From: a virus
Taxonomy: Duplodnaviria; Heunggongvirae; Uroviricota; Caudoviricetes
DNA: 32,959 nt
Direction: 5' to 3' (one strand)
IMG/VR virus record: IMGVR_UViG_2554235419_000004
The notes under the pieces are model-generated. The model made no database searches. It was given only the letters and a program-made list of their open reading frames with translations, and had not been told where the DNA came from. Position numbers and translations under genes: made by a program. Numbering within the stretch: position 1 is the stretch's first letter; each line of letters starts with the position of its first letter. Shown here piece by piece: positions 8,296-32,377 of the stretch.

Positions 8296-8889
8296 CTATT
8301 TGTCCCGGTTGGCTAAGGGATGACACAATTTATTCTTTGTCGCTGATGAGGGAAATTTTTTATAGAGCGTGGACAGACCAATATCAAAAATCAGTGCCAC
8401 GCGTTGACGTGACTCCCCTGCAGCCAGCAAACGCCCGGCCTGCTCCCACTCACTCGCGGTGAGTTTCGGTCGTCTGCCACCAATACGACCTTTGGCTCTG
8501 GCCGCTTCCAGTCCGGCGCGTGTCCGCTCGACAATGAGTTCTCGTTCCATTTCGGCCAGGGCACCCATCACATGAAAGAAAAAACGCCCCATCGGCGTGC
8601 TGGTATCAATAGCATCCGTCAGGCTGCGAAAATTAACGCCGCGTTCGCGCAGCTCCTCAACCAGAATGACCAGATGCCGCATACTACGCCCCAGCCGGTC
8701 CAGCTTCCAGACTACCAGTGTATCCCCCTCCGATAATGTCCTGAGCAGTTTTTTCAGTCCCGGCCTGTCGGACTTCGTGCCGCTGATTTTGTCCTCAAAA
8801 ATCAGCTCACATCCTGCGCACTCCAGCGCGTTACGCTGCAATTCCGTATTCTGGTCATTTGTTGACACGCGTACATAGCCAATAAGCAT
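8296..8889 (-). CDS. Serine-recombinase DNA invertase (Hin/Gin/Pin/Cin family), 197 aa
   Basis: MLIGYVRVSTNDQNTELQRNALECAGCELIFEDKISG...VVWKLDRLGRSMRHL...GRFFFHVMGALAEMERELIVERTRAGL...: catalytic Ser in the VRVSTNDQ motif and a C-terminal HTH. GGGGGA Shine-Dalgarno 5 nt before the ATG at 8889. Confidence 0.9.
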   Translation of the reverse strand: MLIGYVRVSTNDQNTELQRNALECAGCELIFEDKISGTKSDRPGLKKLLRTLSEGDTLVVWKLDRLGRSMRHLVILVEELRERGVNFRSLTDAIDTSTPMGRFFFHVMGALAEMERELIVERTRAGLEAARAKGRIGGRRPKLTASEWEQAGRLLAAGESRQRVALIFDIGLSTLYKKFPSSATKNKLCHPLANRDK

Positions 8890-8944
8890 GAGCATCCCCC
8901 TGAATAAAAACCGGAGATGATGCCAGTTGCCCGTTATCTCTGCA

Positions 8945-8970
8945 TTTTCATAAACGTTGGTTTGGGAGAA
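8945..8970. other. Invertase crossover site, left (hix/gix-like, 26 bp)
   Basis: ttttcataaacgTTggtttgggagaa; its right half is the exact inverse of the left half of the 10784-10809 site; it encodes the conserved ...GLGE junction in frame. Confidence 0.75.
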
Positions 8971-9333
8971 GCGGCAAAACGGGATGTGGGTAACGGGCAA
9001 AACCAAATTCCTGATATGTCAGCGTGGGAGTGTGGGGGAGATACAACGACGGGATGGAGGCGAAGCCCGGATGGTTATATTGAACAATGGGGGCTAACTG
9101 AGGCCACAACAAATGAAGTTTTGATTAATTTTCCTATCCCATTTCCGACAGCCGTCATTTCTATTAATGAACATGACCAGGCTCCTGTGGCAGGGAAAAT
9201 GTCAGTATGGCAATTCTATAAATTGACTAACTCAAATGTCATAGCAGAGAACCTGGGATCTCTTGATAAAGGAAATCCATCCTTCAATGTTCCAACTGTC
9301 GCTGGTTGCCGCTGGTTTGCTACAGGAAGATAA
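8959..9333 (+). CDS. Alternative tail-fibre C-terminal cassette (Sv'-like), promoterless; would be fused to the H constant part only after inversion
   Basis: Open frame through the crossover site encoding ...NVGLGEAAKRD...; no plausible own start; immediately followed by the alternative assembly gene. Confidence 0.65.
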   Translation, partial: GLGEAAKRDVGNGQNQIPDMSAWECGGDTTTGWRRSPDGYIEQWGLTEATTNEVLINFPIPFPTAVISINEHDQAPVAGKMSVWQFYKLTNSNVIAENLGSLDKGNPSFNVPTVAGCRWFATGR

Positions 9334-9334
9334 A

Positions 9335-9775
9335 ATGAGTAAATATCTTTACGATGCAAAAACTAATATGTTTTACCCATTTACTCTGGAAAGTCAGTAT
9401 AAGGAGTCTGGGTTATGGCCTCATAATGGAGTTGAAGTTGATGAGGATATATTTATTAAGTACCTGTCCCCACCTCCTGGGAAGGTGAGAGTTGCGGGTG
9501 ATGATGGCTATCCTGCATGGGATGACGTACCGCCGCTAACTCATGAAGAACAACTGTCAGAAGCGGAACGAAAAAAACAGGCACTCATAAATCGAGTTAA
9601 TGAATATATTAACAGTAAGCAGTGGCTAGGAAAGGCTGCTATTGGTCGTCTGAAAGGTGAGGAACTGGCGCAATATAATTCATGGCTTGATTATCTGGAC
9701 GCACTGGAAATGGTTGATATTTCCAGTGCTCCAGATATTGAATGGCCTACGCCTCCGGCTGTTCAGGCCAGATGA
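9335..9775 (+). CDS. Alternative tail fibre assembly protein (U'-like), 146 aa
   Basis: MSKYLYDAKTNMFYPF...; C-terminus ...SSAPDIEWPTPPA parallels ...TSTAPDIIWPEQPEA of the convergent assembly gene; the 3' ends overlap on opposite strands, as in Mu U/U'. Confidence 0.75.
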   Translation: MSKYLYDAKTNMFYPFTLESQYKESGLWPHNGVEVDEDIFIKYLSPPPGKVRVAGDDGYPAWDDVPPLTHEEQLSEAERKKQALINRVNEYINSKQWLGKAAIGRLKGEELAQYNSWLDYLDALEMVDISSAPDIEWPTPPAVQAR

Positions 9776-10340
9776 TATCCGGCGCGGTGCTGGTATCTGT
9801 TGCCGTCACCGCGTCAATGTAATCCAGCACAGCGTTAAGCCGGGTTGTTTCTGCCTGCGTCAGTTTCCGCCCGGCCTGTAATTTCAGCTGAATCAGACTA
9901 ATGGAAGCCATTGCTGCATCAATCAGTGACTGGCGCTGTGCTTCTGCCGCTTCTACTGCGGCACCGTGTTGTGCCTCAGTATCTGTCACCCATTTCTCAC
10001 CATCCCATTTATCATATGGCGTTAACGGTGAAAGCGTGACATAACCGTTTTTGATGGCACCGATATAATCCACTGTAACAGCTGCGCCATTTTCGATTGA
10101 GTAAACAGTCTCATTGCGATGGTCTTCCTCATGGCTCCATCCCTTACCTGTAAATACTGCCACTCTTCCCGGAATGTTTTCGTCCGGGTCAATACCAGTG
10201 GAACAGGCGGGCATACTTACGCCAGTATTAATATATTCATCAGACCAGCCCGTATATTCAGACGTTACTGCATCATAATAAAAACAACGCATATCACCCG
10301 GCACTGTAGCCAGCCCATTTTCATCAAAAACAGGTTTCAT
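9747..10340 (-). CDS. G: Tail fibre assembly protein (gpG-like, currently in the expressed orientation), 197 aa
   Basis: 197-aa ORF directly downstream of H, start overlapping the H stop; Tfa-like C-terminus. Confidence 0.8.
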   Translation of the reverse strand: MKPVFDENGLATVPGDMRCFYYDAVTSEYTGWSDEYINTGVSMPACSTGIDPDENIPGRVAVFTGKGWSHEEDHRNETVYSIENGAAVTVDYIGAIKNGYVTLSPLTPYDKWDGEKWVTDTEAQHGAAVEAAEAQRQSLIDAAMASISLIQLKLQAGRKLTQAETTRLNAVLDYIDAVTATDTSTAPDIIWPEQPEA

Positions 10341-20556: not shown

Positions 20557-22329
20557 ATGACCATCACCACAGACACCACTCTTTTACACGACCCGCGTCG
20601 TCAGGCGGCGCTGCTGTACTGGCAGGGATTTTCCGTGCCGCAGATTGCCGCCATGTTGCAGATGAAACGCCCGACGGTGCAGAGCTGGAAACAGCGCGAC
20701 GGCTGGGACAGCGTTGCCCCCATCAGCCGTGTCGAAATGAGTCTGGAAGCGCGGCTGACCCAGCTCATCATCAAACCGCAGAAAACCGGCGGTGACTTCA
20801 AGGAAATTGACCTGCTCGGACGCCAGATTGAACGACTGGCACGGGTCAACCGTTACAGTCAGACCGGCAACGAGGCAGACCTTAATCCGAACGTCGCTAA
20901 CCGCAACAAAGGCGGGCGTCGCAAACCGAAAAAGAATTTTTTCAGTGACGAGGCCATCGAAAAGCTGGAGCAGATTTTCTTTGAGCAGTCTTTCGAATAT
21001 CAGTTGCACTGGTATCGCGCCGGGCTTGAGCACCGCATCCGCGATATCCTGAAATCCCGCCAGATTGGCGCGACGTTTTATTTTTCCCGCGAGGCGCTGC
21101 TGCGCGCCCTGAAAACCGGTCATAACCAGATTTTTCTGTCGGCCAGTAAAACGCAGGCGTATGTGTTCCGCGAATACATCATCGCCTTTGCCCGGCTGGT
21201 TGACGTTGACCTGACCGGTGACCCAATTGTCCTGGGCAATAACGGCGCAAAACTGATTTTTCTCGGCACCAACTCCAACACCGCGCAGAGCCATAACGGC
21301 GACCTGTACGTCGACGAGATTTTCTGGATCCCGAATTTTCAGGTGCTCCGTAAGGTGGCATCAGGTATGGCCTCACAGAGTCACCTGCGCTCGACCTATT
21401 TCTCCACCCCATCCACGCTGGCGCACGACGCCTACCCGTTCTGGTCCGGTGAACTGTTTAACCGGGGACGCGCCAGCGCCGCCGAACGCGTGGAAATCGA
21501 CGTCAGTCATAACGCCCTTGCCGGAGGTCTTCTCTGTGCGGACGGCCAGTGGCGGCAGATTGTCACCATTGAGGACGCCCTGAAAGGTGGCTGCACTCTG
21601 TTCGACATTGAGCAGCTCAAACGCGAAAACAGCGCCGACGATTTTAAAAACCTGTTCATGTGTGAATTTGTTGACGACAAGGCATCGGTGTTCCCGTTCG
21701 AGGAGCTGCAACGCTGCATGGTCGACACGCTGGAAGAATGGGAAGACTATGCGCCGTTTGCCGCAAATCCGTTCGGCTCACGTCCGGTATGGATTGGTTA
21801 CGACCCGTCACACCGTGGCGACAGCGCCGGATGCGTGGTACTGGCACCGCCGGTGGTGGCCGGTGGCAAATTCAGAATACTTGAGCGTCACCAGTGGAAA
21901 GGCATGGACTTTGCCACCCAGGCGGAATCCATCCGCAAACTCACCGAAAAATACAACGTCGAATACATCGGAATTGATGCCACCGGCCTCGGTGTCGGCG
22001 TGTTCCAGCTCGTGCGCTCGTTCTATCCCGCCGCGCGCGATATCCGCTACACGCCGGAAATGAAAACCGCAATGGTGCTCAAGGCAAAAGACGTTATCCG
22101 CCGTGGCTGTCTGGAATATGACGTCAGCGCCACCGACATCACCAGCTCGTTTATGGCTATCCGCAAGACCATGACCAGCAGCGGACGCAGTGCCACCTAT
22201 GAGGCCAGCCGCAGCGAGGAAGCCAGCCACGCCGACCTCGCCTGGGCGACCATGCACGCCCTGTTAAATGAGCCACTCACCGCCGGTATCAGCACCCCGC
22301 TGACATCCACCATTCTGGAGTTTTACTGA
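20557..22329 (+). CDS. P: Terminase large (ATPase) subunit gpP, 590 aa
   Basis: MTITTDTTLLHDPRRQAALLYWQGFSV...; GAGG Shine-Dalgarno 8 nt upstream; length as P2 gpP; followed by Q with overlapping stop/start. Confidence 0.85.
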   Translation: MTITTDTTLLHDPRRQAALLYWQGFSVPQIAAMLQMKRPTVQSWKQRDGWDSVAPISRVEMSLEARLTQLIIKPQKTGGDFKEIDLLGRQIERLARVNRYSQTGNEADLNPNVANRNKGGRRKPKKNFFSDEAIEKLEQIFFEQSFEYQLHWYRAGLEHRIRDILKSRQIGATFYFSREALLRALKTGHNQIFLSASKTQAYVFREYIIAFARLVDVDLTGDPIVLGNNGAKLIFLGTNSNTAQSHNGDLYVDEIFWIPNFQVLRKVASGMASQSHLRSTYFSTPSTLAHDAYPFWSGELFNRGRASAAERVEIDVSHNALAGGLLCADGQWRQIVTIEDALKGGCTLFDIEQLKRENSADDFKNLFMCEFVDDKASVFPFEELQRCMVDTLEEWEDYAPFAANPFGSRPVWIGYDPSHRGDSAGCVVLAPPVVAGGKFRILERHQWKGMDFATQAESIRKLTEKYNVEYIGIDATGLGVGVFQLVRSFYPAARDIRYTPEMKTAMVLKAKDVIRRGCLEYDVSATDITSSFMAIRKTMTSSGRSATYEASRSEEASHADLAWATMHALLNEPLTAGISTPLTSTILEFY

Positions 22330-23357
22330 TGAGCAAGAAAAAAGGGAAAACACCGCAACCTGCGGCAAAAAAAATGACCGCCAGCGCCCCGAAAATGGAG
22401 GCATTCACCTTTGGTGAGCCGGTGCCGGTACTCGACCGGCGTGACATTCTGGATTACGTCGAGTGCATCAGTAACGGCAGATGGTATGAGCCACCGGTCA
22501 GCTTTACCGGTCTGGCGAAAAGCCTGCGTGCTGCCGTGCATCACAGCTCACCGATTTACGTCAAACGTAATATTCTGGCTTCAACGTTTATCCCGCACCC
22601 GTGGCTTTCCCAGCAGGATTTCAGCCGTTTTGTGCTGGATTTTCTGGTGTTCGGTAATGCGTTTCTGGAAAAGCGTTACAGCACCACCGGTAAGGTTATC
22701 AGGCTGGAAACCTCGCCGGCAAAATATACCCGCCGTGGCGTGGAGGAGGATGTTTACTGGTGGGTGCCGTCCTTCAACGAGCCGACAGCCTTCGCGCCCG
22801 GCTCCGTGTTTCACCTGCTGGAGCCGGATATCAATCAGGAGCTGTACGGCCTGCCGGAATATCTCAGCGCCCTTAACTCTGCCTGGCTGAATGAGTCAGC
22901 CACGCTGTTCCGCCGCAAGTATTACGAAAACGGCGCTCATGCCGGATACATCATGTACGTCACTGATGCCGTGCAGGATCGCAACGATATCGAAATGCTT
23001 CGCGAAAACATGGTCAAGTCGAAAGGCCGCAACAACTTTAAAAACCTGTTTCTCTATGCCCCACAGGGGAAAGCCGACGGCATTAAAATTATCCCCCTCA
23101 GTGAAGTGGCGACGAAGGACGATTTTTTTAATATCAAAAAAGCCAGCGCCGCTGACCTGCTGGACGCGCACCGCATCCCCTTTCAGTTGATGGGCGGCAA
23201 GCCGGAGAACGTCGGGTCACTGGGTGATATTGAGAAAGTGGCAAAGGTCTTTGTCCGCAATGAGCTTATCCCGCTACAGGACAGGATCCGCGAGATAAAC
23301 GGCTGGCTCAGCGCCGAAGTTATTCAATTCAAAAATTACTCTTTAGACGATAATTAA
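22329..23357 (+). CDS. Q: Portal protein gpQ, 342 aa
   Basis: 342-aa ORF downstream of P and translationally coupled to it; synteny with P2 Q. Confidence 0.85.
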   Translation: MSKKKGKTPQPAAKKMTASAPKMEAFTFGEPVPVLDRRDILDYVECISNGRWYEPPVSFTGLAKSLRAAVHHSSPIYVKRNILASTFIPHPWLSQQDFSRFVLDFLVFGNAFLEKRYSTTGKVIRLETSPAKYTRRGVEEDVYWWVPSFNEPTAFAPGSVFHLLEPDINQELYGLPEYLSALNSAWLNESATLFRRKYYENGAHAGYIMYVTDAVQDRNDIEMLRENMVKSKGRNNFKNLFLYAPQGKADGIKIIPLSEVATKDDFFNIKKASAADLLDAHRIPFQLMGGKPENVGSLGDIEKVAKVFVRNELIPLQDRIREINGWLSAEVIQFKNYSLDDN

Positions 23358-23376
23358 CCCAATATTTAGATGATAA

Positions 23377-23424
23377 TTAGCCCTAGCATTTGCCGGGGCT
23401 AATAATTGCAGGATTTTATTTTTT
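23377..23424. terminator. Hairpin plus T-rich tract between convergent Q and the cargo operon (candidate bidirectional terminator)
   Basis: ttagccc...gggctaa inverted repeat (23377-23402) followed by attttatttttt on the plus strand. Confidence 0.35.
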
Positions 23425-23988
23425 CATATTGTATATAAAGTCACAAATATGCGCCAGTGATAATCTGTTATAGTTTTCCAATGTAAACACAGGATAATTA
23501 TAGCAAATTTCAGGAGGAGGCAATTGCGAGCGAACAGTTGTTTTTTTAGCTGATTGCTGCCTCCTCGATAATTTACTTATTACACCAATGTAATCCACTT
23601 TTCTTGACAAATGCCCATGTAAATTCAATACAGAATATAGCCACTTACAAAAATGAATGCCAGTAACTACCTGTTTAGCCGCACCATTTGAGTTATAAGA
23701 TTTGAGATCTATTACGATAAAATAATCTACGTCTTTGTGCGACGTAACAAAAATTCCATCACAAACAGAGCATACTCCTGGTAAAGCAGAAGATTTTAAA
23801 AATTTCCAGACTGGTTTAGAAATACTATTAGAATCTAGCGAAAATCCATAGATACCATTTCCGTTTACCAGTAATTTTTTATTTGTAGCACCTGGGTTCT
23901 CTTCGCATACAACCCAGCATTCCTGCTCTCGCATTAATTGAAATGTAGGATCGATGCAACTTTGTATTACATTGATAATATTACTCAT
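23416..23988 (-). CDS. Unknown 190-aa protein, second gene of the AT-rich cargo operon; candidate effector of a defence system
   Basis: ATG overlaps the stop of the upstream ATPase gene (ATGAGTAA, 8-nt gene overlap); GAGGA Shine-Dalgarno; AT-rich codon usage unlike the phage backbone; no motif I can assign with confidence. Confidence 0.7.
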   Translation of the reverse strand: MSNIINVIQSCIDPTFQLMREQECWVVCEENPGATNKKLLVNGNGIYGFSLDSNSISKPVWKFLKSSALPGVCSVCDGIFVTSHKDVDYFIVIDLKSYNSNGAAKQVVTGIHFCKWLYSVLNLHGHLSRKVDYIGVISKLSRRQQSAKKTTVRSQLPPPEICYNYPVFTLENYNRLSLAHICDFIYNMKK

Positions 23989-25414
23989 CTACATCCTCAC
24001 TATCAGAGGCATTCTCCACCAAGGAGTAATATATTTCATCATTATCGTCATTAATGGCATTAATTACTTCATCAAAAGTTACAGCATTAATCCCTTCATT
24101 TGACTTCTGCATTTCATTGACTGAGCCATTATCAAATAAATACGCAGCGACTAGGTTAGAGTCTAAAATTGAGTCGATGCTAATCCCTTGCTTCTGCATG
24201 ATAGCGTTTCGTTTTTCAATCATATTTTCAGAAACGCCATGCAACATAATCAAGCTATTGATTTCTTTCACAAAATAATCACTGTGAGTACTAACAATAA
24301 CCCGAATACCAGAGTTAACTAGCTTTGCTAAAAATCTTGCAATTACTCGCTGATTTGACGGGTGTAAATTTAACTCGGGTTCGTCAATCATTAAAATATC
24401 ACCAGTTTTTGCTTGGTGCTCTAAATAAAACCACAGGCCAAACAAACTTTTAACAGTGGATGACGATAAATGAAGTTCAATTTTACTTGCAGGTGTCTTA
24501 CCTTTCTTATACGTTGAAAAATAAATCTGCCCTTCAGGATCAACTGAATATTTTCCTGAAATTATTTTTTTTACTTCTTCTGCTAATTTATGAAATTGGC
24601 CATTTTTATTTTTCCTATTAACCTTAATTTCATTAAGCCAGTCTATGTAATTTGCTATAGGAGCAGAATACTTAGACTTCATTACATCCATTAATAGTGA
24701 GTTCAGATCGAACTGTTCTTTTGAGGCGTGGTGCAATAACGCAGTTCTTCTGGAACTTAATTCATTGAAAAAAAGGTGCAAGCCATTTCTTTCTGCGGGA
24801 ATTAAAAATGCTGGGCTTTCATCATACTCTATCTTTAATAACTGACTTAGAGTTAAGTTTATAAACCCATCAATTCTGGGAAAAGCAGAATCTAGCAGCG
24901 TCATTTGTATGATATTGCTATTTTTATCTTTGGATAATAGCATTACTTCTTTTTTGCCGGTTCCTATGACGAGGCTAACATCCAATTTTTTTTCATAAAC
25001 ACTTGATACTAATGATTCTTCATCTATAACCCAGTCAAATGTTGAATTAGAAAAAATTTCCTTATCATTAGTGTTGAATACATCTTTAAGCATTAAAGAT
25101 GAATCTTTATTAAATTCTCTTTTGATTAACGTAAAATTATCTTTTATCCACTCAATTACATCTAATTCAAACTTACCATTTTCACGAAGAGTTTTGGCAA
25201 AATTTGCAACTTGAGGCAATTTTAAAGATGGTGATGGCATATTTAGGAAGCCATATAACCCATACATAACCCATGTTTTACCAGTATTATTTTTTCCGCA
25301 TAAAAGCGTTAAAGGTTTTGCATTAATTTCTCCTGTAGAGATACACCCAATGTTTTTAAATGAAAATCTCCATGATGCTAATTTTTTTACGTTAATTTCA
25401 CTTTGCTTTTTCAT
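23981..25414 (-). CDS. ABC-type / AAA15-AAA21-like ATPase (OLD/SMC-like fold), 477 aa; first gene of the cargo operon
   Basis: Walker A LLCGKNNTGKT (res 38-47); Walker B/D-loop ILMIDEPELNLHP; H-loop VSTHSD; acidic C-terminal tail; AAGGA Shine-Dalgarno; AT-rich. Confidence 0.8.
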   Translation of the reverse strand: MKKQSEINVKKLASWRFSFKNIGCISTGEINAKPLTLLCGKNNTGKTWVMYGLYGFLNMPSPSLKLPQVANFAKTLRENGKFELDVIEWIKDNFTLIKREFNKDSSLMLKDVFNTNDKEIFSNSTFDWVIDEESLVSSVYEKKLDVSLVIGTGKKEVMLLSKDKNSNIIQMTLLDSAFPRIDGFINLTLSQLLKIEYDESPAFLIPAERNGLHLFFNELSSRRTALLHHASKEQFDLNSLLMDVMKSKYSAPIANYIDWLNEIKVNRKNKNGQFHKLAEEVKKIISGKYSVDPEGQIYFSTYKKGKTPASKIELHLSSSTVKSLFGLWFYLEHQAKTGDILMIDEPELNLHPSNQRVIARFLAKLVNSGIRVIVSTHSDYFVKEINSLIMLHGVSENMIEKRNAIMQKQGISIDSILDSNLVAAYLFDNGSVNEMQKSNEGINAVTFDEVINAINDDNDEIYYSLVENASDSEDVDE

Positions 25415-25665
25415 TGAGTTTCCTTAATCAATTACATACGAACTGATCAAACCATTGATCGTGTTGAAAAGTCAATACTATACTAAATAACCACGAAGAA
25501 TAGTGCTTCATTTTCCGTCAGTCCTAATAGGTTAAGATATATGGACTGTTTTCTCAAACTTGTTGCGCTCTGCTGAATCTCTCGTATGTTACTTCAATAT
25601 GATGAACATCCTAACTCTGAAACGGTAAGTCTATCGGTATTACATTTTCACATTGCATGAGCGCG

Positions 25666-25684
25666 GTGCTTTCCCCGCCTCGCC
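25666..25684. other. cos site (19-nt cohesive-end sequence)
   Basis: gtgctttccccgcctcgcc is the reverse complement of GGCGAGGCGGGGAAAGCAC, the P2 cohesive end as I recall it; sits in a GC-rich island inside AT-rich surroundings. Confidence 0.75.
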
Positions 25685-25968
25685 CGCCCGCTTCACGGGG
25701 CGGTTTTAATGCAGTTGCATAGATACTATGGATCCGCACCAGTCCTGACCGCACGCAGCCTGAACGGACATCCCCAGCGCATGCAAAAACATTCACTTGT
25801 TGCATGCATAGCTTTTTAAGTACGCCATACCGCAACTGTACATTTTTAAGCAATTGGCAACTTTAAAAAATTTACATTGCTTTCAAGACCTTATCATCCG
25901 TAGTCTCTGTTTTTTACTTTGAGCTACATCAATAAAATCTCAAACATGTTTAATGCAAAGCCCTTGTT

Positions 25969-26022
25969 ACACAACATAGAATGTATGTCTAGAAACAACG
26001 ACATACTATATGTTGTGTTTTT
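25969..26022 (+). terminator. Long imperfect hairpin plus T-run (candidate intrinsic terminator, attenuator or sRNA 3' end)
   Basis: acacaacatagaatgtatgtc / gacatactatatgttgtgt arms (7 bp + internal loop + 10 bp) followed by TTTTT. Confidence 0.45.
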
Positions 26023-26074
26023 CCGGCTCTCTGTTCGGTGATATGCCAAATCACTTTGCGTTTAAACAGAGCAT

Positions 26075-26089
26075 TATTTCAGGGCAAGA
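26075..26089. repeat. 15-bp direct repeat caagacttcgctcaa, copy 1
   Basis: Exact match to 26349-26363; the two copies flank the small ORF and terminator. Confidence 0.6.
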
Positions 26090-26162
26090 CTTCGCTCAAA
26101 AGTCATTCCACCTAAGAAGCGCATATACCGGTGGAAGTTGCCCTCTACTTACAGGAGGCAAT

Positions 26163-26276
26163 ATGAAGAAATGCTATTACTGCATTCTCGTTCTGGCCCT
26201 CTTTGGCTATCCAAACGGTAGTCCAAGTGGTTTGTCAGTAAACGTCAGTAATATCAATGTCAGCATTATGCTTTAA
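26163..26276 (+). CDS. Small hydrophobic peptide, 37 aa (possible membrane peptide or moron product)
   Basis: AGGAGG Shine-Dalgarno 4 nt before the ATG; MKKCYYCILVLALFGYPNGSPSGLSVNVSNINVSIML; immediately followed by a strong terminator. Confidence 0.4.
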   Translation: MKKCYYCILVLALFGYPNGSPSGLSVNVSNINVSIML

Positions 26277-26285
26277 TATGCTTCA

Positions 26286-26320
26286 AACAAAAAAACCACC
26301 TGCCAGGGTGGTTTTTTTGC
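26286..26320. terminator. Bidirectional Rho-independent terminator (A7-hairpin-T7)
   Basis: aaaaaaaccacctgccagggtggttttttt: GC stem flanked by an A-run and a T-run; can terminate the small-ORF transcript (plus) and the early operon ending with A (minus). Confidence 0.7.
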
Positions 26321-26348
26321 GCCCATCATCAATACGATGAAAGACTGA

Positions 26349-26363
26349 CAAGACTTCGCTCAA
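26349..26363. repeat. 15-bp direct repeat caagacttcgctcaa, copy 2
   Basis: Exact match to 26075-26089. Confidence 0.6.
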
Positions 26364-26578
26364 GACGAATTATGCGTCGACATAAGGTTACCCGCAATGA
26401 TTTTATTAGACTAAATGGATGGCCTTTTATGACCCGGATCAAACGGCTGTCCTTACCGACATGCTAGTCACTCAATAGCATTTAGCCTTCTAATTCAGCA
26501 TGCTATTGACCTTCTGCTGCCCCATAACTGCTCCGCATAAGCCATTCAATGCCATATCAAATCACGTTGTGTTTTTAC

Positions 26579-28897
26579 TCAAATGGGTAACGAGAACCCC
26601 GGCCACTCATCAGCAACCGGATACGTGAATTTTTTCCCGTCATAATTTACGGTCGCGCCACGCGCCAGCGCCTCAAGCTCCCATCGTTGCGGCCTGATAC
26701 CGTTCTGAGCGAGGTCAACGCGGATACGGGTAATTTGCAATCGTTCAGACCTGGTCAGTCTGGCAGATGGTGCAATTTCATGCGGTTTTAACGGGATTCC
26801 GTTTCTTTGCTGACGATTTGGTGTTCTCAGTCCGTGTTTTAATGCGCCCCTGAGCACCATCACGACCTCCGGGTCACTCCATTCGATAACACCGTCATCT
26901 ACCAGATTAAGCACTGCTGCGGCGTGCTCAGAAGGTGTGGGAGCCGGTAACGAAGTATCACCACCGGTGAGCTTTCCACAGTTATTGACAGGACTCCGAG
27001 GCGCGGCGATGCCGCTTTTTAAAGTCAAAGGCTCGACGACCGGAACTTTCGGCACAATGCGCCAGTTCGTCGTTCTGGTGATATGAATATGACGCGCGCC
27101 GAGATGCGGCGCGTAAATGCCGACCACTCTCTCGACCTCTTCCTCGTACTCGTTAACGTCATCCGACGGGCTACGGGCGACCCTGACAGTCTGACAATCG
27201 CGCGGGACATTTGCCCCACCCTGCGCGCTGATATACAACGCAAAATCACCACTGTCTGCGGCGGCGCGTGCAGCCTCGACGCGCTCGTCAAACTCATCAG
27301 CAATGCTGACGCCGCGAGGCAATTTGCGTAGTTCACGGTAAGCCCCCATTGTCGGCAGGCCAACCGTTTTAAATTGCGGGATGCGCCACGTTGACGCCCA
27401 TGCGGTAACAGCCGCTGCAGTGTCTTTCAGCGGCCTGCCGGTGTCGTTATCGAGCTGACCATCCAGTGCATAGCCGTCGATGTTTTTTGAAATGTATTTC
27501 GCGATATATCCCGCAGCACCGCCCCGGTTAAGGTGTTTTGCCTGAAAACGGTTTCGCGCGGCTCCTCTTTCATCGCCATCCTCTTTGAGCGCATAGCGAC
27601 GCATGATTTCGATAATCTGGTTACGCTGGCGTGGATTACAAAAAAGCATCATATGCCAGTGCGGCGTTCCGTCGTGGTGTGGCTCGACGACACGCAAACC
27701 GTAGACCTGTAAATCATTATCCTTGAATGCCGTGCGCATCAGGCTCCAGATACGGCAGAGATAACGCTGCGCATCCTTTGGATTAAATGCCTCATCGTTC
27801 CAGCCGTGATTAAGCTGCACGGTTTTACTTTCGCCTTTTCCTACCTGACGTGTCGGATGATACTTTGACGGCGCGGTCAGCGTGATAAACATCCCCACAT
27901 CACCCTCTGCAGCGGCGTAACGCTCAATACCGGCAATGGTGTTCATCAGCTCCATCCGGCGAATTTCAGGATTAGAAATACTGCCCATCACCTTACTGAT
28001 AAGGTCGATGCGCTCGCCGGTTTCCCTATTTTCAAGGTCACACGATTTAAGAAATTCCAGATTTGCCTGGCGGCGCGCACGCACATCACGAATGGCGTGT
28101 TTACTGGCATAAGGAGAACGGTCTTTATTGACCTCCCCGACAGCTATCAGTAACGCTTCATGCCAGCGCATACGCTGGCCTTTAAGCTGATGAGTCCACC
28201 ACTCATCGTTAAACAGACGGGCAATGGCAGAATATGCCTGCCTCGTGGTCATCTGTCCTTTACGGTATTTTTTCCAGTAAAGCGGGGAAATATTGAAAGC
28301 ACGTGCAGCGCCAGCAACATGACCATACAGATGCGCCTGCGCCTCATCCGTAAACAGCGATTCTTTTTCGCCATGCGCATCCACCCAGGCATCGCAGAGT
28401 TCCTCATACATCATGAAAAGCTGCGATGAGATACGGGCGGCAAACTTTTTCAGCTCCTTGTCATTCATCCCCGGCAGACGCGCATACTGGTCACGCTCTG
28501 CCAGAAACAGCAACGACGCGTCGGTGTTCATTTCATGGCGCTGATTCACACGCTCAATGCGCGGCCATAAACGACGCTGAAAAGTGGATGTGAGGAAATA
28601 AAACCCGTGTACCGGGCTTTTATTGCGCCGGATGTAGTCATAGCGTGAAGTAAACAGCGAGCGCAAAAAGTAAGGCAGGCGGTTAATCGTGGATAAAACA
28701 CCTTGCACCTGACGCATCTCGTCACGTGTAAGGGGTCTTTCGCGCCCGACAGCCTCGCGTGGCGCGTTCCATGCATAAGCACCGGTAAACGCCTTACCGG
28801 TGCCTGCGGCAAATGCTGACGGAGGGACAAAACGCCCGGAGGCTTTAACGGCCATATGAGCCAAAAGCCTCTGAACAACGCTTGCTGAGTTGCTCAA
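26579..28897 (-). CDS. A: Replication initiation protein gpA (rolling-circle nickase), 772 aa
   Basis: 772-aa ORF at the end of the early operon; size and position as P2 gpA (761 aa as recalled). Confidence 0.85.
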   Translation of the reverse strand: MSNSASVVQRLLAHMAVKASGRFVPPSAFAAGTGKAFTGAYAWNAPREAVGRERPLTRDEMRQVQGVLSTINRLPYFLRSLFTSRYDYIRRNKSPVHGFYFLTSTFQRRLWPRIERVNQRHEMNTDASLLFLAERDQYARLPGMNDKELKKFAARISSQLFMMYEELCDAWVDAHGEKESLFTDEAQAHLYGHVAGAARAFNISPLYWKKYRKGQMTTRQAYSAIARLFNDEWWTHQLKGQRMRWHEALLIAVGEVNKDRSPYASKHAIRDVRARRQANLEFLKSCDLENRETGERIDLISKVMGSISNPEIRRMELMNTIAGIERYAAAEGDVGMFITLTAPSKYHPTRQVGKGESKTVQLNHGWNDEAFNPKDAQRYLCRIWSLMRTAFKDNDLQVYGLRVVEPHHDGTPHWHMMLFCNPRQRNQIIEIMRRYALKEDGDERGAARNRFQAKHLNRGGAAGYIAKYISKNIDGYALDGQLDNDTGRPLKDTAAAVTAWASTWRIPQFKTVGLPTMGAYRELRKLPRGVSIADEFDERVEAARAAADSGDFALYISAQGGANVPRDCQTVRVARSPSDDVNEYEEEVERVVGIYAPHLGARHIHITRTTNWRIVPKVPVVEPLTLKSGIAAPRSPVNNCGKLTGGDTSLPAPTPSEHAAAVLNLVDDGVIEWSDPEVVMVLRGALKHGLRTPNRQQRNGIPLKPHEIAPSARLTRSERLQITRIRVDLAQNGIRPQRWELEALARGATVNYDGKKFTYPVADEWPGFSLPI

Positions 28898-31363: not shown

Positions 31364-32377
31364 ATGGCAATCAAAAAACTCGATGATGGTCGATATGAAG
31401 TGGACATCCGCCCTACTGGACGTAACGGAAAACGCATCCGTAGGAAGTTTGATAAGAAAAGCGAAGCTGTCGCTTTCGAAAAATACACGTTGTACAACCA
31501 CCACAATAAAGAATGGCTATCAAAACCAACAGACAAACGACGTCTGTCGGAACTGACACAGATCTGGTGGGATTTAAAGGGTAAACACGAAGAGCATGGG
31601 AAATCTAATCTTGGAAAAATTGAAATCTTCACAAAAATAACGAATGACCCATGCGCATTTCAAATCACGAAATCCCTTATCAGCCAGTACTGCGCCACCC
31701 GAAGAAGTCAGGGTATTAAACCTTCGAGTATCAATCGTGATTTAACATGTATTAGCGGCATGTTTACAGCCCTGATTGAAGCGGAGTTATTCTTTGGTGA
31801 GCACCCTATCAGAGGGACAAAGAGGCTTAAGGAGGAAAAACCAGAAACAGGCTATCTCACACAGGAAGAAATTGCCTTACTGCTTGCAGCACTTGACGGC
31901 GACAATAAAAAGATTGCGATTCTTTGCCTGAGTACAGGAGCACGTTGGGGAGAAGCAGCTCGTTTGAAAGCAGAAAATATCATCCATAACCGCGTCACGT
32001 TTGTTAAAACGAAAACAAACAAACCACGCACCGTCCCGATCTCAGAGGCTGTTGCCAAAATGATCGCGGATAACAAACGAGGTTTTTTATTCCCTGATGC
32101 TGATTACCCTCGCTTCAGACGAACAATGAAAGCAATAAAACCAGATTTGCCAATGGGGCAAGCCACACATGCACTAAGGCACAGCTTTGCCACTCATTTC
32201 ATGATTAATGGAGGAAGTATTATCACGCTACAACGGATACTAGGTCACACGCGGATTGAGCAAACTATGGTTTACGCTCATTTTGCGCCAGAGTACCTTC
32301 AGGACGCCATTTCTCTTAATCCGCTAAGAGGTGGTACTGAGGCCGAGAGTGTCCACACAGTGTCCACAGTAGAGTAA
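31364..32377 (+). CDS. int: Tyrosine integrase, 337 aa
   Basis: C-terminal catalytic residues ...ATHALRHSFATHFM...LGHTRIEQTMVYAHF (R, H-x-x-R, Y); adjacent to attR. Confidence 0.9.
   Translation: MAIKKLDDGRYEVDIRPTGRNGKRIRRKFDKKSEAVAFEKYTLYNHHNKEWLSKPTDKRRLSELTQIWWDLKGKHEEHGKSNLGKIEIFTKITNDPCAFQITKSLISQYCATRRSQGIKPSSINRDLTCISGMFTALIEAELFFGEHPIRGTKRLKEEKPETGYLTQEEIALLLAALDGDNKKIAILCLSTGARWGEAARLKAENIIHNRVTFVKTKTNKPRTVPISEAVAKMIADNKRGFLFPDADYPRFRRTMKAIKPDLPMGQATHALRHSFATHFMINGGSIITLQRILGHTRIEQTMVYAHFAPEYLQDAISLNPLRGGTEAESVHTVSTVE

Follow-up and report, generated by a model that had tools for sequence, protein, structure and literature searches.

The locus described here raises the question of whether a phage-borne ABC ATPase with a strikingly acidic C-terminal end is a new, stand-alone protein or part of a system that is already known, and of what this end might do. 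The gene lies in a window of 32,959 nucleotides (the whole stretch of DNA that was analysed), and a first-pass annotation had described its product as a stand-alone ABC/AAA15-like ATPase lacking a fused nuclease, distinct from OLD and GajA and carrying an 80-aa extension that ends in an acidic tail, which was proposed to be an autoinhibitory or partner-binding element.

The ATPase and its 190-residue partner

The ATPase gene occupies positions 23981..25414 on the minus strand, begins with ATG, ends with TAA and encodes 477 residues. Its Shine-Dalgarno sequence, AAGGA, is placed 6 nt 5' of the ATG (25421..25425, minus strand), and a promoter scan found no sigma-70 consensus promoter 5' of the gene on the minus strand. 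The ORF together with Pfam, PADLOC, PHROG and AF2 results identifies the product as a PD-T4-4_A-type ABC ATPase (OLD-family-like, AAA_15): Pfam places AAA_15 on residues 20-382 (E 6e-26) and AAA_21 on residues 227-382, PHROG 13167 matches over the full length, and the AF2 model (pLDDT 83) presents an ABC-head fold. In NCBIfam, ABC and PtuA models matched below threshold only.

All the motifs expected of such a head are intact and, in an alignment of 118 homologues, invariant or nearly so. On the minus strand they comprise the Walker A GKNNTGKT (residues 40-47, 25274..25297), with K46 as the catalytic lysine and with G40, N42, N43, K46 and T47 invariant; the Q-loop equivalent PAER (residues 206-209, 24788..24799; P206, E208 and R209 invariant); the ABC-signature-like LSSS (residues 316-319, 24458..24469; S318 and S319 invariant); the Walker B ILMIDE (residues 340-345, 24380..24397), followed by the D-loop PELNLHP, with M342, D344 and P346 to P352 invariant; and the H-loop STHS (residues 375-378, 24281..24292), invariant at all 4 positions (S375, T376, H377 and S378). 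Beyond the H-loop the protein has only about 95 residues left. Pfam searches with the whole protein and with its C-terminal 97 aa detected no TOPRIM, and fold searches aligned the ABC head exclusively, so that both the ATPase assignment and the lack of a fused nuclease were borne out.

The description of the ATPase as stand-alone did not survive, since its stop codon overlaps by 8 nt the start of a 190-aa partner gene (23416..23988, minus strand) at the junction ATGAGTAA (23981..23988, minus strand), an arrangement by which the 2 genes are translationally coupled. The partner has a pI of 9.0, matches PADLOC and PHROG 14491, and is predicted to be a PD-T4-4_B-type, PD-(D/E)xK-like nuclease belonging to a family of 134 representatives, nearly all of them 175-200 aa long. 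Conservation and the AF2 model point to a putative catalytic core, D77 … D94-L-K96, on a beta-hairpin (23701..23760, minus strand), and to Q106 on the helix after it (23671-23673, minus strand). All of 74 diverse members have D77 and Q106, at least 90% of them keep K96 and D52, and position 94 carries either E or D; the model places the hairpin at 78-84/87-94, the helix at 103-123 and a further strand at 130-139. The reference PD-T4-4B has HHpred matches to PD-(D/E)xK proteins at residues 77-106, with a weak signature. Searches with the partner returned no Pfam match at E<=1, no match to the AriB model of PADLOC and nothing in NCBIfam.

The pairing itself is recurrent. A partner-HMM-positive ORF lies just downstream of the ATPase in 69 of 78 related loci spread over many phyla, and the 2 genes overlap or abut in 53 of these 69 operons. 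Inspection by hand of 4 lineages (Aeromonas, Acinetobacter, Herbaspirillum and Vibrio) confirmed a homologous partner 3' of the ATPase homologue, and some homologous pairs, for example in Aeromonas and Acinetobacter, are chromosomal and outside any prophage. The Vibrio relatives sit among ParE/Phd cassettes. This recurrence, combined with the PADLOC matches detailed below, upholds the earlier suggestion that the ATPase works with its 190-aa neighbour.

A known two-gene system in the P2 defence hotspot

The operon lies in a low-GC variable island (23358..26578) between the portal gene Q (22329-23357, plus strand) and the replication gene A (26579-28897, minus strand), which corresponds to the P2 defence hotspot as defined by Rousset 2022 and Vassallo 2022 (PMC9519451). 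GC content is 36% in the island and 33% in the operon, compared with 52% in the window. A P2-type cos 19-mer, GGCGAGGCGGGGAAAGCAC, is found as an exact match at 25666..25684 (minus strand; 0 expected by chance); it is identical to P2 cosL/cosR, the surrounding ~53 bp are 98% identical to P2, and the ATPase-partner operon sits between this site and the portal gene. In the gap between Q and the partner gene, whose stop codons converge, a possible hairpin (TTAGCCC / GGGCTAA with a 12-nt loop, 23377..23402) was read by eye as a weak candidate for a bidirectional terminator; the terminator scan did not flag it. In the cos-to-A spacer, Rfam matched a terminator hairpin below threshold only.

The 2.8-kb island used as query is shared at 100% identity by an E. 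coli W prophage, and the order GPA, cos, ATPase, partner, portal is repeated in 2 further P2-like prophages, one from Cronobacter and one metagenomic. In the collection of phage genomes the island is present in no sequenced phage record, where only cos-proximal fragments match. The cargo appears in only 18 of 5426 complete E. coli genomes, and the pair is therefore not a core function of P2.

Comparison with the PADLOC families assigned both proteins to one system. The ATPase matches PD-T4-4_A (PDLC04033) with E 2.1e-112 and 374.7 bits, aligning residues 16-465 to positions 2-458 of the 460 in the profile, and a second PD-T4-4_A model, PDLC04032, with 5e-61; the partner matches PD-T4-4_B (PDLC04037) with E 1.2e-15, aligning residues 2-155 to positions 3-160 of 190. 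Since the partner match is weaker and limited to this segment, we consider the partner a divergent PD-T4-4_B allele. The comparison with AriA, PtuA, AbiLi and Old that the first-pass annotation had proposed placed all of them far below PD-T4-4_A: AriA reached 1.8e-29 (102 bits, residues 18-382), Old 2e-15, PtuA 4e-11 at best (41 bits), GajA 3e-10 and AbiLi 5e-10. The low Old and GajA scores, together with the absence of a fused TOPRIM, sustain the separation from OLD and GajA; the novelty of the ATPase is lost, as it is orthologous to a described family with a matching partner, PD-T4-4_A with PD-T4-4_B.

Vassallo et al. 2022 (PMC9519451) described PD-T4-4, an 'ATPase, nuclease' pair from E. 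coli ECOR58 (RCO57999.1 and RCO57988.1) selected on T4, and validated it as a defence system. The reference pair has the layout of ours, with a ~190-aa protein of weak PD-(D/E)xK signature encoded behind an AAA_15 ABC ATPase of ~460-480 aa, and the ORFs span 1973 bp there and 1999 bp here. The 2 copies differ in their setting, an ICE-like element for the reference and the P2 portal/cos hotspot for the window copy, and in the start of the window ATPase, ~14 residues earlier relative to the profile. A pair identical to ours, WP_000744812 and WP_001350078 from E. coli W, is included in the P2-hotspot cargo list of Rousset et al. 2022; within the tables of that study the exact pair occurs solely in the hotspot content list, and a full-text search of the literature by accession found no paper naming these 2 proteins, which appear only in the supplementary table.

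Filing the ATPase with PARIS (AriA) or Septu (PtuA), as one of their ATPases with a swapped effector, would take as its support the position of AriA as the next-best named PADLOC family and a preprint that gives PD-T4-4 an HNH effector like that of Septu. This option appears extremely improbable when 375 bits for PD-T4-4_A are set against 102 for AriA and 41 for PtuA, and when the partner, which matches PD-T4-4_B, shows neither DUF4435/TOPRIM nor HNH at E<=1-10, as is also the case for members of its family; moreover, 3 other papers give the PD-T4-4 effector as PD-(D/E)xK. The HNH effector proposed in the preprint is thus unsupported here, with no HNH match in the partner or its 74 relatives.

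A different function could also be imagined for the pair, as an addiction (toxin-antitoxin-like) module stabilising the prophage or as a cos-proximal accessory of P2, with no anti-phage role at this site. The pair adjoins cos on the portal side in 3 P2-like prophages, AAA_21 is annotated as 'putative AbiEii toxin, type IV TA', and the ParE/Phd surroundings of the Vibrio relatives would fit such a module. We hold this to be very unlikely, given that the slot is a documented variable defence hotspot, that homologous pairs also exist at Aeromonas and Acinetobacter chromosomal sites outside prophages, and that anti-phage activity has been measured for 2 members of the family, PD-T4-4 and WonAB (PMC9519451, PMC12137116).

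With high probability, the locus encodes a two-gene anti-phage system of the PD-T4-4 type, which a P2-like prophage bears in its cos-proximal defence hotspot as cargo gained by horizontal transfer (33% GC). The system is already known and its novelty is low: a PADLOC-type scan would label the locus PD-T4-4 and the proteins are in a published P2-hotspot list, which leaves little value as a discovery.

The C-terminal extension and the acidic tail

The ATPase does continue beyond its core, as the first-pass annotation had noted, but what had been taken as a single 80-aa extension proved to be made of 3 parts: a folded region, a conserved helix and a variable acidic tail. The folded region (residues 383-439; 24098..24268, minus strand) is modelled by AF2 as 2 helices and a beta-hairpin with pLDDT about 88-94; it is moderately conserved, with a mean commonest-residue frequency of 0.54 per column and 8 invariant positions, and Pfam found no match on it. 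Residues 440-464 (24023..24097, minus strand) carry the helix motif E-G-I-x-A-x-T-F-D-x-x-I-x-x-L-N-x-x-S-D-x-I-Y-Y, in which 9 of 25 positions are invariant and whose pLDDT is low in the AF2 monomer model. By analogy, this motif is a candidate dimerisation or partner-docking element. Docking is more plausible for it than for the tail; WonB, the nuclease of the related WonAB system, is predicted to sit on the dimerised C-terminal extensions of WonA (PMC12137116).

The acidic tail, LVENASDSEDVDE (residues 465-477; 23984..24022, minus strand; net charge -6), is present as originally reported, with 6 acidic and no basic residues in the final 13 and 10 acidic and no basic in the final 25. Its acidity exceeds chance: the tail is net-negative in 91.5% of 118 close homologues, compared with 38.9% of equal-length windows elsewhere in the same proteins, and the longest and most acidic tails, with net charges of -5 to -6, are those of the P2-borne enterobacterial clade. 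These figures favour a selected, protein-level regulator, either an autoinhibitory plug that mimics nucleic acid and occupies the basic partner (pI 9.0) or a latch that binds it, and the predicted docking of WonB on the C-terminal extensions of WonA (PMC12137116) also speaks for this reading.

The coding sequence, however, offers another source for this composition. The codons of the tail hold the Shine-Dalgarno sequence (GAGGA) and the start codon of the partner gene, and these elements encode 4 of the 6 acidic residues. Across 63 diverse loci, D/E content is 35% within the initiation zone of the partner and 14% in the remaining tail, which is the level of the protein body, although in this comparison the initiation zone is confounded with the extreme C-terminus, so that it makes a protein-level role less probable. 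Moreover, 13% of the tails carry a net positive charge, those of one clade being both long and basic, some distant members have basic tails, and the tail sequence is poorly conserved, with a mean commonest-residue frequency of 0.25 per column. With the excess acidity confined to the partner-initiation codons and with tails of the opposite charge in the family, the proposal of an autoinhibitory or partner-binding tail is not supported as it was stated, and we regard a selected regulator as unlikely. The acidity of the tail is instead, at least in part, a side effect of coding for the translation-start signals of the partner gene, its Shine-Dalgarno sequence and start codon, with which the tail largely coincides.

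A narrower version of the regulatory idea could apply to the P2-borne enterobacterial clade, in which the helix 440-464 and the long -6 tail would together form a latch that docks and silences the basic PD-(D/E)xK partner, the tail occupying the substrate groove as a nucleic-acid mimic until a phage cue and ATP turnover release it, and the overlap with the Shine-Dalgarno sequence and start codon reflecting evolutionary co-option and not the sole cause of the acidity. We offer this as a speculation with quite a small chance of being correct. The analysis directs functional interest to the invariant helix motif 440-464 and away from the conspicuous acidic tail, and the case advises caution, as a striking composition at the end of a protein can be largely the shadow of the ribosome-binding site of the downstream gene.

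Proposed mechanism and comparison with known systems

Returning to the PD-T4-4 assignment, the most likely mechanism, by analogy with WonAB, is that of an ATP-driven sensor whose C-terminal extensions would hold a docked PD-(D/E)xK effector, which the sensor would activate. The ATPase would dimerise through its ABC heads and, as predicted for WonAB, the conserved extension (383-464) may act as the platform that holds the nuclease. A phage-derived cue would then alter the ATP cycle and license the effector, which could cut a specific nucleic acid, not necessarily DNA, and this cutting would stop the infection and protect the lysogen population along with its prophage. Purified EcPD-T4-4 proteins form higher-order complexes in mass photometry and do not cut DNA in vitro. 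The compact P2-borne allele, which the laboratory strain E. coli W carries, is a convenient model in which to study trigger, substrate and structure of PD-T4-4 and WonAB.

The WonAB system, from the WASA-1 prophage of Vibrio cholerae (AWB73975.1 and AWB73976.1; PMC12137116), resembles the window pair as judged by architecture and motif order alone. Both are prophage-borne and combine an OLD-type ABC ATPase without fused nuclease with a small PD-(D/E)xK-like partner, and both ATPases present the order Walker A, R (Q-loop), Walker B and H-loop and bear C-terminal extensions; the type of prophage and the host are different. WonA is more compact, with K34, R182, E300 and H333 where the window ATPase has K46, R209, E345 and H377, a difference in spacing in line with the variation that has been reported for Insert 1/2 and for the C-terminal extensions (PMC12137116). 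Following motif order, R209 would correspond to WonA R182, and the R182A mutation abolishes defence. In that study, whose authors explicitly relate WonAB to PD-T4-4, both genes are required for defence, as are the ATPase motifs and the nuclease lysine; ATPase-dead mutants lose WonB, and defence operates as a lysis-independent abortive infection after the onset of phage DNA replication and without bulk DNA degradation (PMC12137116). An ABC-ATPase survey by the Aravind group, as cited in PMC12137116, reports operons of the type 'OLD-ABC ATPase + novel REase', with all detected WonAB homologues among them, from 0.96% of bacterial genomes; as far as that citation describes it, the window pair shares this class of architecture.

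Other systems are less close. PARIS (AriA/AriB) also combines a separate AAA_15 ABC ATPase with a separate nuclease, is likewise found in P2/P4 hotspots and provides the second-best named profile, but its effector AriB is a DUF4435/TOPRIM protein, a domain absent from the window partner, and AriA scores 102 bits against 375. P2 Old, Gabija GajA and Septu PtuAB have in common with the window ATPase an OLD-type ABC head; Old and GajA differ by their fused TOPRIM, absent here, and Septu by the pairing of PtuA with the HNH protein PtuB, HNH being absent from the window partner. The old gene of phage P2 itself occupies the same hotspot, but in P2 old/tin are found on the A side of cos and not, like the operon of the window, on the portal side.

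A known two-gene system in the Q-to-A interval

The ATPase gene lies on the minus strand, running from an ATG at 25414 down to a TAA stop at 23981 (477 aa), with a Shine-Dalgarno sequence (AAGGA) 6 nt 5' of the start codon. Pfam assigns AAA_15 to residues 20-382 (E 6e-26) and AAA_21 to residues 227-382, and the protein contains a Walker A motif (GKNNTGKT, residues 40-47), the Q-loop equivalent PAER (206-209), LSSS (316-319), a Walker B motif (ILMIDE, 340-345) followed by PELNLHP, and STHS (375-378). Since all these catalytic motifs are present and each is invariant or almost so in an alignment of 118 homologues, the first-pass annotation was correct at the sequence level. The lowest conservation in the protein is found in Insert 1 (residues 59-200), where the median identity to distant homologues is 25%, the kind of variability that a specificity or sensor region would be expected to show.

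The same annotation had described the ATPase as stand-alone. The 3' end of its gene shares 8 nt (ATGAGTAA) with the start of a second minus-strand ORF (23416-23988) encoding a 190-aa partner, and comparison with PADLOC profiles matched the ATPase over its full length to PD-T4-4_A (E 2.1e-112) and the partner to PD-T4-4_B (E 1.2e-15). The other families listed for comparison fall far below PD-T4-4_A (AriA 1.8e-29, Old 2e-15, PtuA 4e-11, GajA 3e-10, AbiLi 5e-10), and LmuB is absent from the best 25 profile matches of the ATPase. PD-T4-4 was obtained from E. coli ECOR58 by functional selection on T4 and is entered as "ATPase, nuclease", validated (Vassallo et al. 2022, PMC9519451); its ORFs span 1973 bp, compared with 1999 bp in the window. 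The identical E. coli W locus is represented in RefSeq by WP_000744812 (AAA family ATPase) and WP_001350078 (hypothetical protein), and this pair appears in a published hotspot-content table as "AAA_15/AAA_21 + hypothetical" (Rousset et al. 2022). Given these profile matches and the exact pair in that table, the ATPase belongs to a described family with a matching partner, so that the view of a defence ATPase with no nuclease domain fused to it holds and that of a new, stand-alone protein does not. Both the system, PD-T4-4, and the hotspot are therefore known, and the allele is already catalogued; its own defence activity is predicted from profiles and relatives.

The pair is widely conserved. 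The ATPase family exceeds 2,500 matches; a single-sequence search retrieved only 9 relatives of the partner, and an exhaustive profile search 134 cluster representatives, nearly all of them stand-alone proteins of 175-200 aa. ATPase homologues in Aeromonas, Acinetobacter, Herbaspirillum and Vibrio (45-51% identity) each have a protein of 183-188 aa encoded downstream, with 29-37% identity to the window partner, and all of these match PD-T4-4_B. We surveyed the junction in 80 loci from species-representative genomes of Proteobacteria, Campylobacterota, Firmicutes, Fusobacteria, Cyanobacteria, Bacteroidota, Chloroflexi and others. The ATPase C-terminus was covered in 78 of the 80, a downstream ORF was present in 72 of these 78 and matched the partner-family HMM in 69 of the 72, with overlapping or abutting junctions in 53 of the 69. 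The vehicles carrying pair homologues in Herbaspirillum (L006), Vibrio (L008/L009) and a Klebsiella-like metagenome (L010) are very diverse and include a filamentous prophage (Zot / secretin / Rep), a ParE/Phd cassette array beside an IS66 element, and the tail-fibre end of a different prophage.

Prophage context and position relative to cos

Almost all of a P2-like prophage is contained in the window. The left end of the window holds a host peptidase-U32 gene (1-1362), followed by the CyaR/RyeE sRNA (1445-1530, 100.7 bits), and because the right arm of the prophage begins just past this sRNA, integration appears to have occurred beside cyaR. Tail, capsid, terminase and portal genes come next, with replication gene A at 26579-28897 and the integrase at 31364-32377. 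The operon has a GC content of 33% versus 52% for the window, and lies in a low-GC island that extends from portal gene Q (end at 23357) to gene A, an interval documented as a variable defence hotspot of P2-like phages (Rousset 2022; Vassallo 2022). As a 2.8-kb query, the island showed 100% DNA identity to E. coli W and its derivatives, was found at ≥80% coverage in 18 of 5426 complete E. coli genomes and was absent from sequenced phage records. Two records of ~4.83 Mb labelled "DH5alpha" (NZ_CP026085.1 and NZ_CM135829.1) carry it at 100% identity, as E. coli W does. K-12 derivatives are not known to harbour an intact P2-like prophage, so a wrong label or contamination is possible for these two records.

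The P2 cos 19-mer is found at 25666-25684, and ~53 bp around it, no more, are shared with P2. In reference P2, Q starts 187 nt past cosL and old and tin are located between A and cosR; the window cassette lies between cos and Q, whereas old/tin lie between A and cos. The same P2 slot is held by closer ATPase relatives in Cronobacter (L011, 79% identity) and in a metagenomic P2-like prophage (L012, 64%), where a cos-like 19-mer with 2 mismatches (L011 4883-4901) and 3 mismatches (L012 4892-4910), respectively, precedes the ATPase gene by ~100 nt and the order cos, ATPase, partner, portal recurs. Once packaged, the linear genome would carry the operon at its extreme left end.

Two perfect direct copies of a 15-nt sequence (CAAGACTTCGCTCAA, 26085-26099 and 26349-26363; chance expectation in the region roughly estimated at ~0.005 pairs) bracket a 264-bp module located between cos and gene A. 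It contains a strong hairpin of the bidirectional terminator type (~26285-26325) and a small ORF, whose inner ATG yields MKKCYYCILVLALFGYPNGSPSGLSVNVSNINVSIML. The module has no Pfam match and no Rfam match at threshold, and is unannotated in E. coli W. Elsewhere in the prophage, a serine DNA invertase gene (Resolvase + HTH_7; 8296-9006, minus) adjoins a tail-fibre C-terminal fragment (8917-9333, plus) and opposed tail-fibre-assembly genes (9263-9775, plus; 9747-10340, minus). This segment (8296-10340) resembles the invertible host-range segments of the Gin/Cin/Pin type, is placed at the second (Z/fun) hotspot of P2 and has a GC content of ~46-48%.

The C-terminal extension and its acidic tail

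The extension beyond the H-loop, initially described as a single 80-aa element, does carry the acidic tail but is made up of three parts: a confidently modelled folded segment of two helices and a hairpin (residues 383-439), a helix modelled with low confidence in the monomer whose motif is very strongly conserved (440-464), and the variable acidic tail (465-477). Tail acidity is statistically real, as 91.5% of 118 homologues have net-negative tails versus 38.9% of control windows, and D/E make up 28.6% of tail residues versus 13.2% of protein bodies. The tail codons (…GAT AGT GAG GAT GTA GAT GAG TAA, window 23984-24022) include GAGGA, the Shine-Dalgarno sequence of the partner, and gATGag, which holds its start codon; four of the six acidic residues are fixed because these signals encode them, and the same was seen in 7 of 8 loci checked by hand. 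At the junctions of L002-L012 and L015-L094, the ATPase/partner loci examined, the last ATPase codons read GAG/GAT/GAA and contain the partner Shine-Dalgarno and start. Across 63 diverse loci, D/E account for 35% of the tail residues encoded between -14 and +3 relative to the partner start and for 14% of those outside this zone, the body level, a comparison confounded with "extreme C-terminus" that consequently weakens, rather than refutes, a role of the tail at the protein level. Tails are net-positive in 13% of these loci, among them a betaproteobacterial clade whose tails are long and basic.

Partner initiation signals thus account for most of the family-wide acidity, which lessens the case for the autoinhibitory or partner-binding element first proposed. 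The 440-464 motif (E-G-I-x-A-x-T-F-D…L-N-x-x-S-D-x-I-Y-Y), with 9 of its 25 positions invariant and located well upstream of the partner start, is the stronger candidate for a C-terminal element with a function. A distant ATPase subclade from Limnohabitans, Tepidimonas, Rhodoferax and Sideroxydans (L050, L052, L057, L059, L061, L069; ~33-36% identity over most full-length matches) ends in long tails that are strongly basic (…KVLKARKGKV, …PKVAKKSKVRT), the opposite of that in the window, and its partners match the partner HMM at ~1e-12.

The putative effector and comparison with WonAB

D77 and Q106 are invariant among 74 diverse partner-family members, conservation of K96 and D52 reaches at least 90%, and position 94 is E in most and D in the window protein, resulting in a D…(D/E)xK…Q signature. 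The AF2 model, poor overall (pLDDT 57), places these residues on a β-hairpin (78-84, 87-94), after which come a helix (103-123) and a strand (130-139), a predicted order that corresponds to the canonical PD-(D/E)xK core topology. The reference PD-T4-4 partner gave weak HHpred PD-(D/E)xK matches at residues 77-106 (Vassallo et al. 2022, PMC9519451), and the effector is assigned to this fold in that study, in the WonAB paper (PMC12137116) and in a nuclease-NTPase preprint. One introduction instead describes it as an HNH nuclease like that of Septu (bioRxiv 10.64898/2026.07.10.737580), a reading that is at odds with these three papers and for which we found no support, as the partner family gave no HNH match. 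As the model is poor and partner profiles matched no PDB or Pfam family, a PD-(D/E)xK nuclease is consistent with our tests, short of proof.

The related WonAB system, from the WASA-1 prophage of Vibrio cholerae, requires both genes for defence, which is abolished by mutations in Walker A, the Q-loop R, Walker B, the H-loop and the nuclease lysine; WonB is lost when WonA is ATPase-dead, and its predicted docking site is formed by the dimerised C-terminal extensions of WonA (PMC12137116). By motif order, the equivalent residues would be K46, R209, E345 and H377 in the ATPase and K96 in the partner. WonAB acts once phage DNA replication has begun, by lysis-independent abortive infection and with no bulk DNA degradation (PMC12137116), and purified EcPD-T4-4 forms higher-order complexes and cut 0 of 11 DNA substrates. 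From these WonAB genetics and EcPD-T4-4 properties we infer a model in which the ATPase would work as an ATP-driven sensor dimer, whose C-terminal platform would hold and license a PD-(D/E)xK effector with a substrate that need not be DNA.
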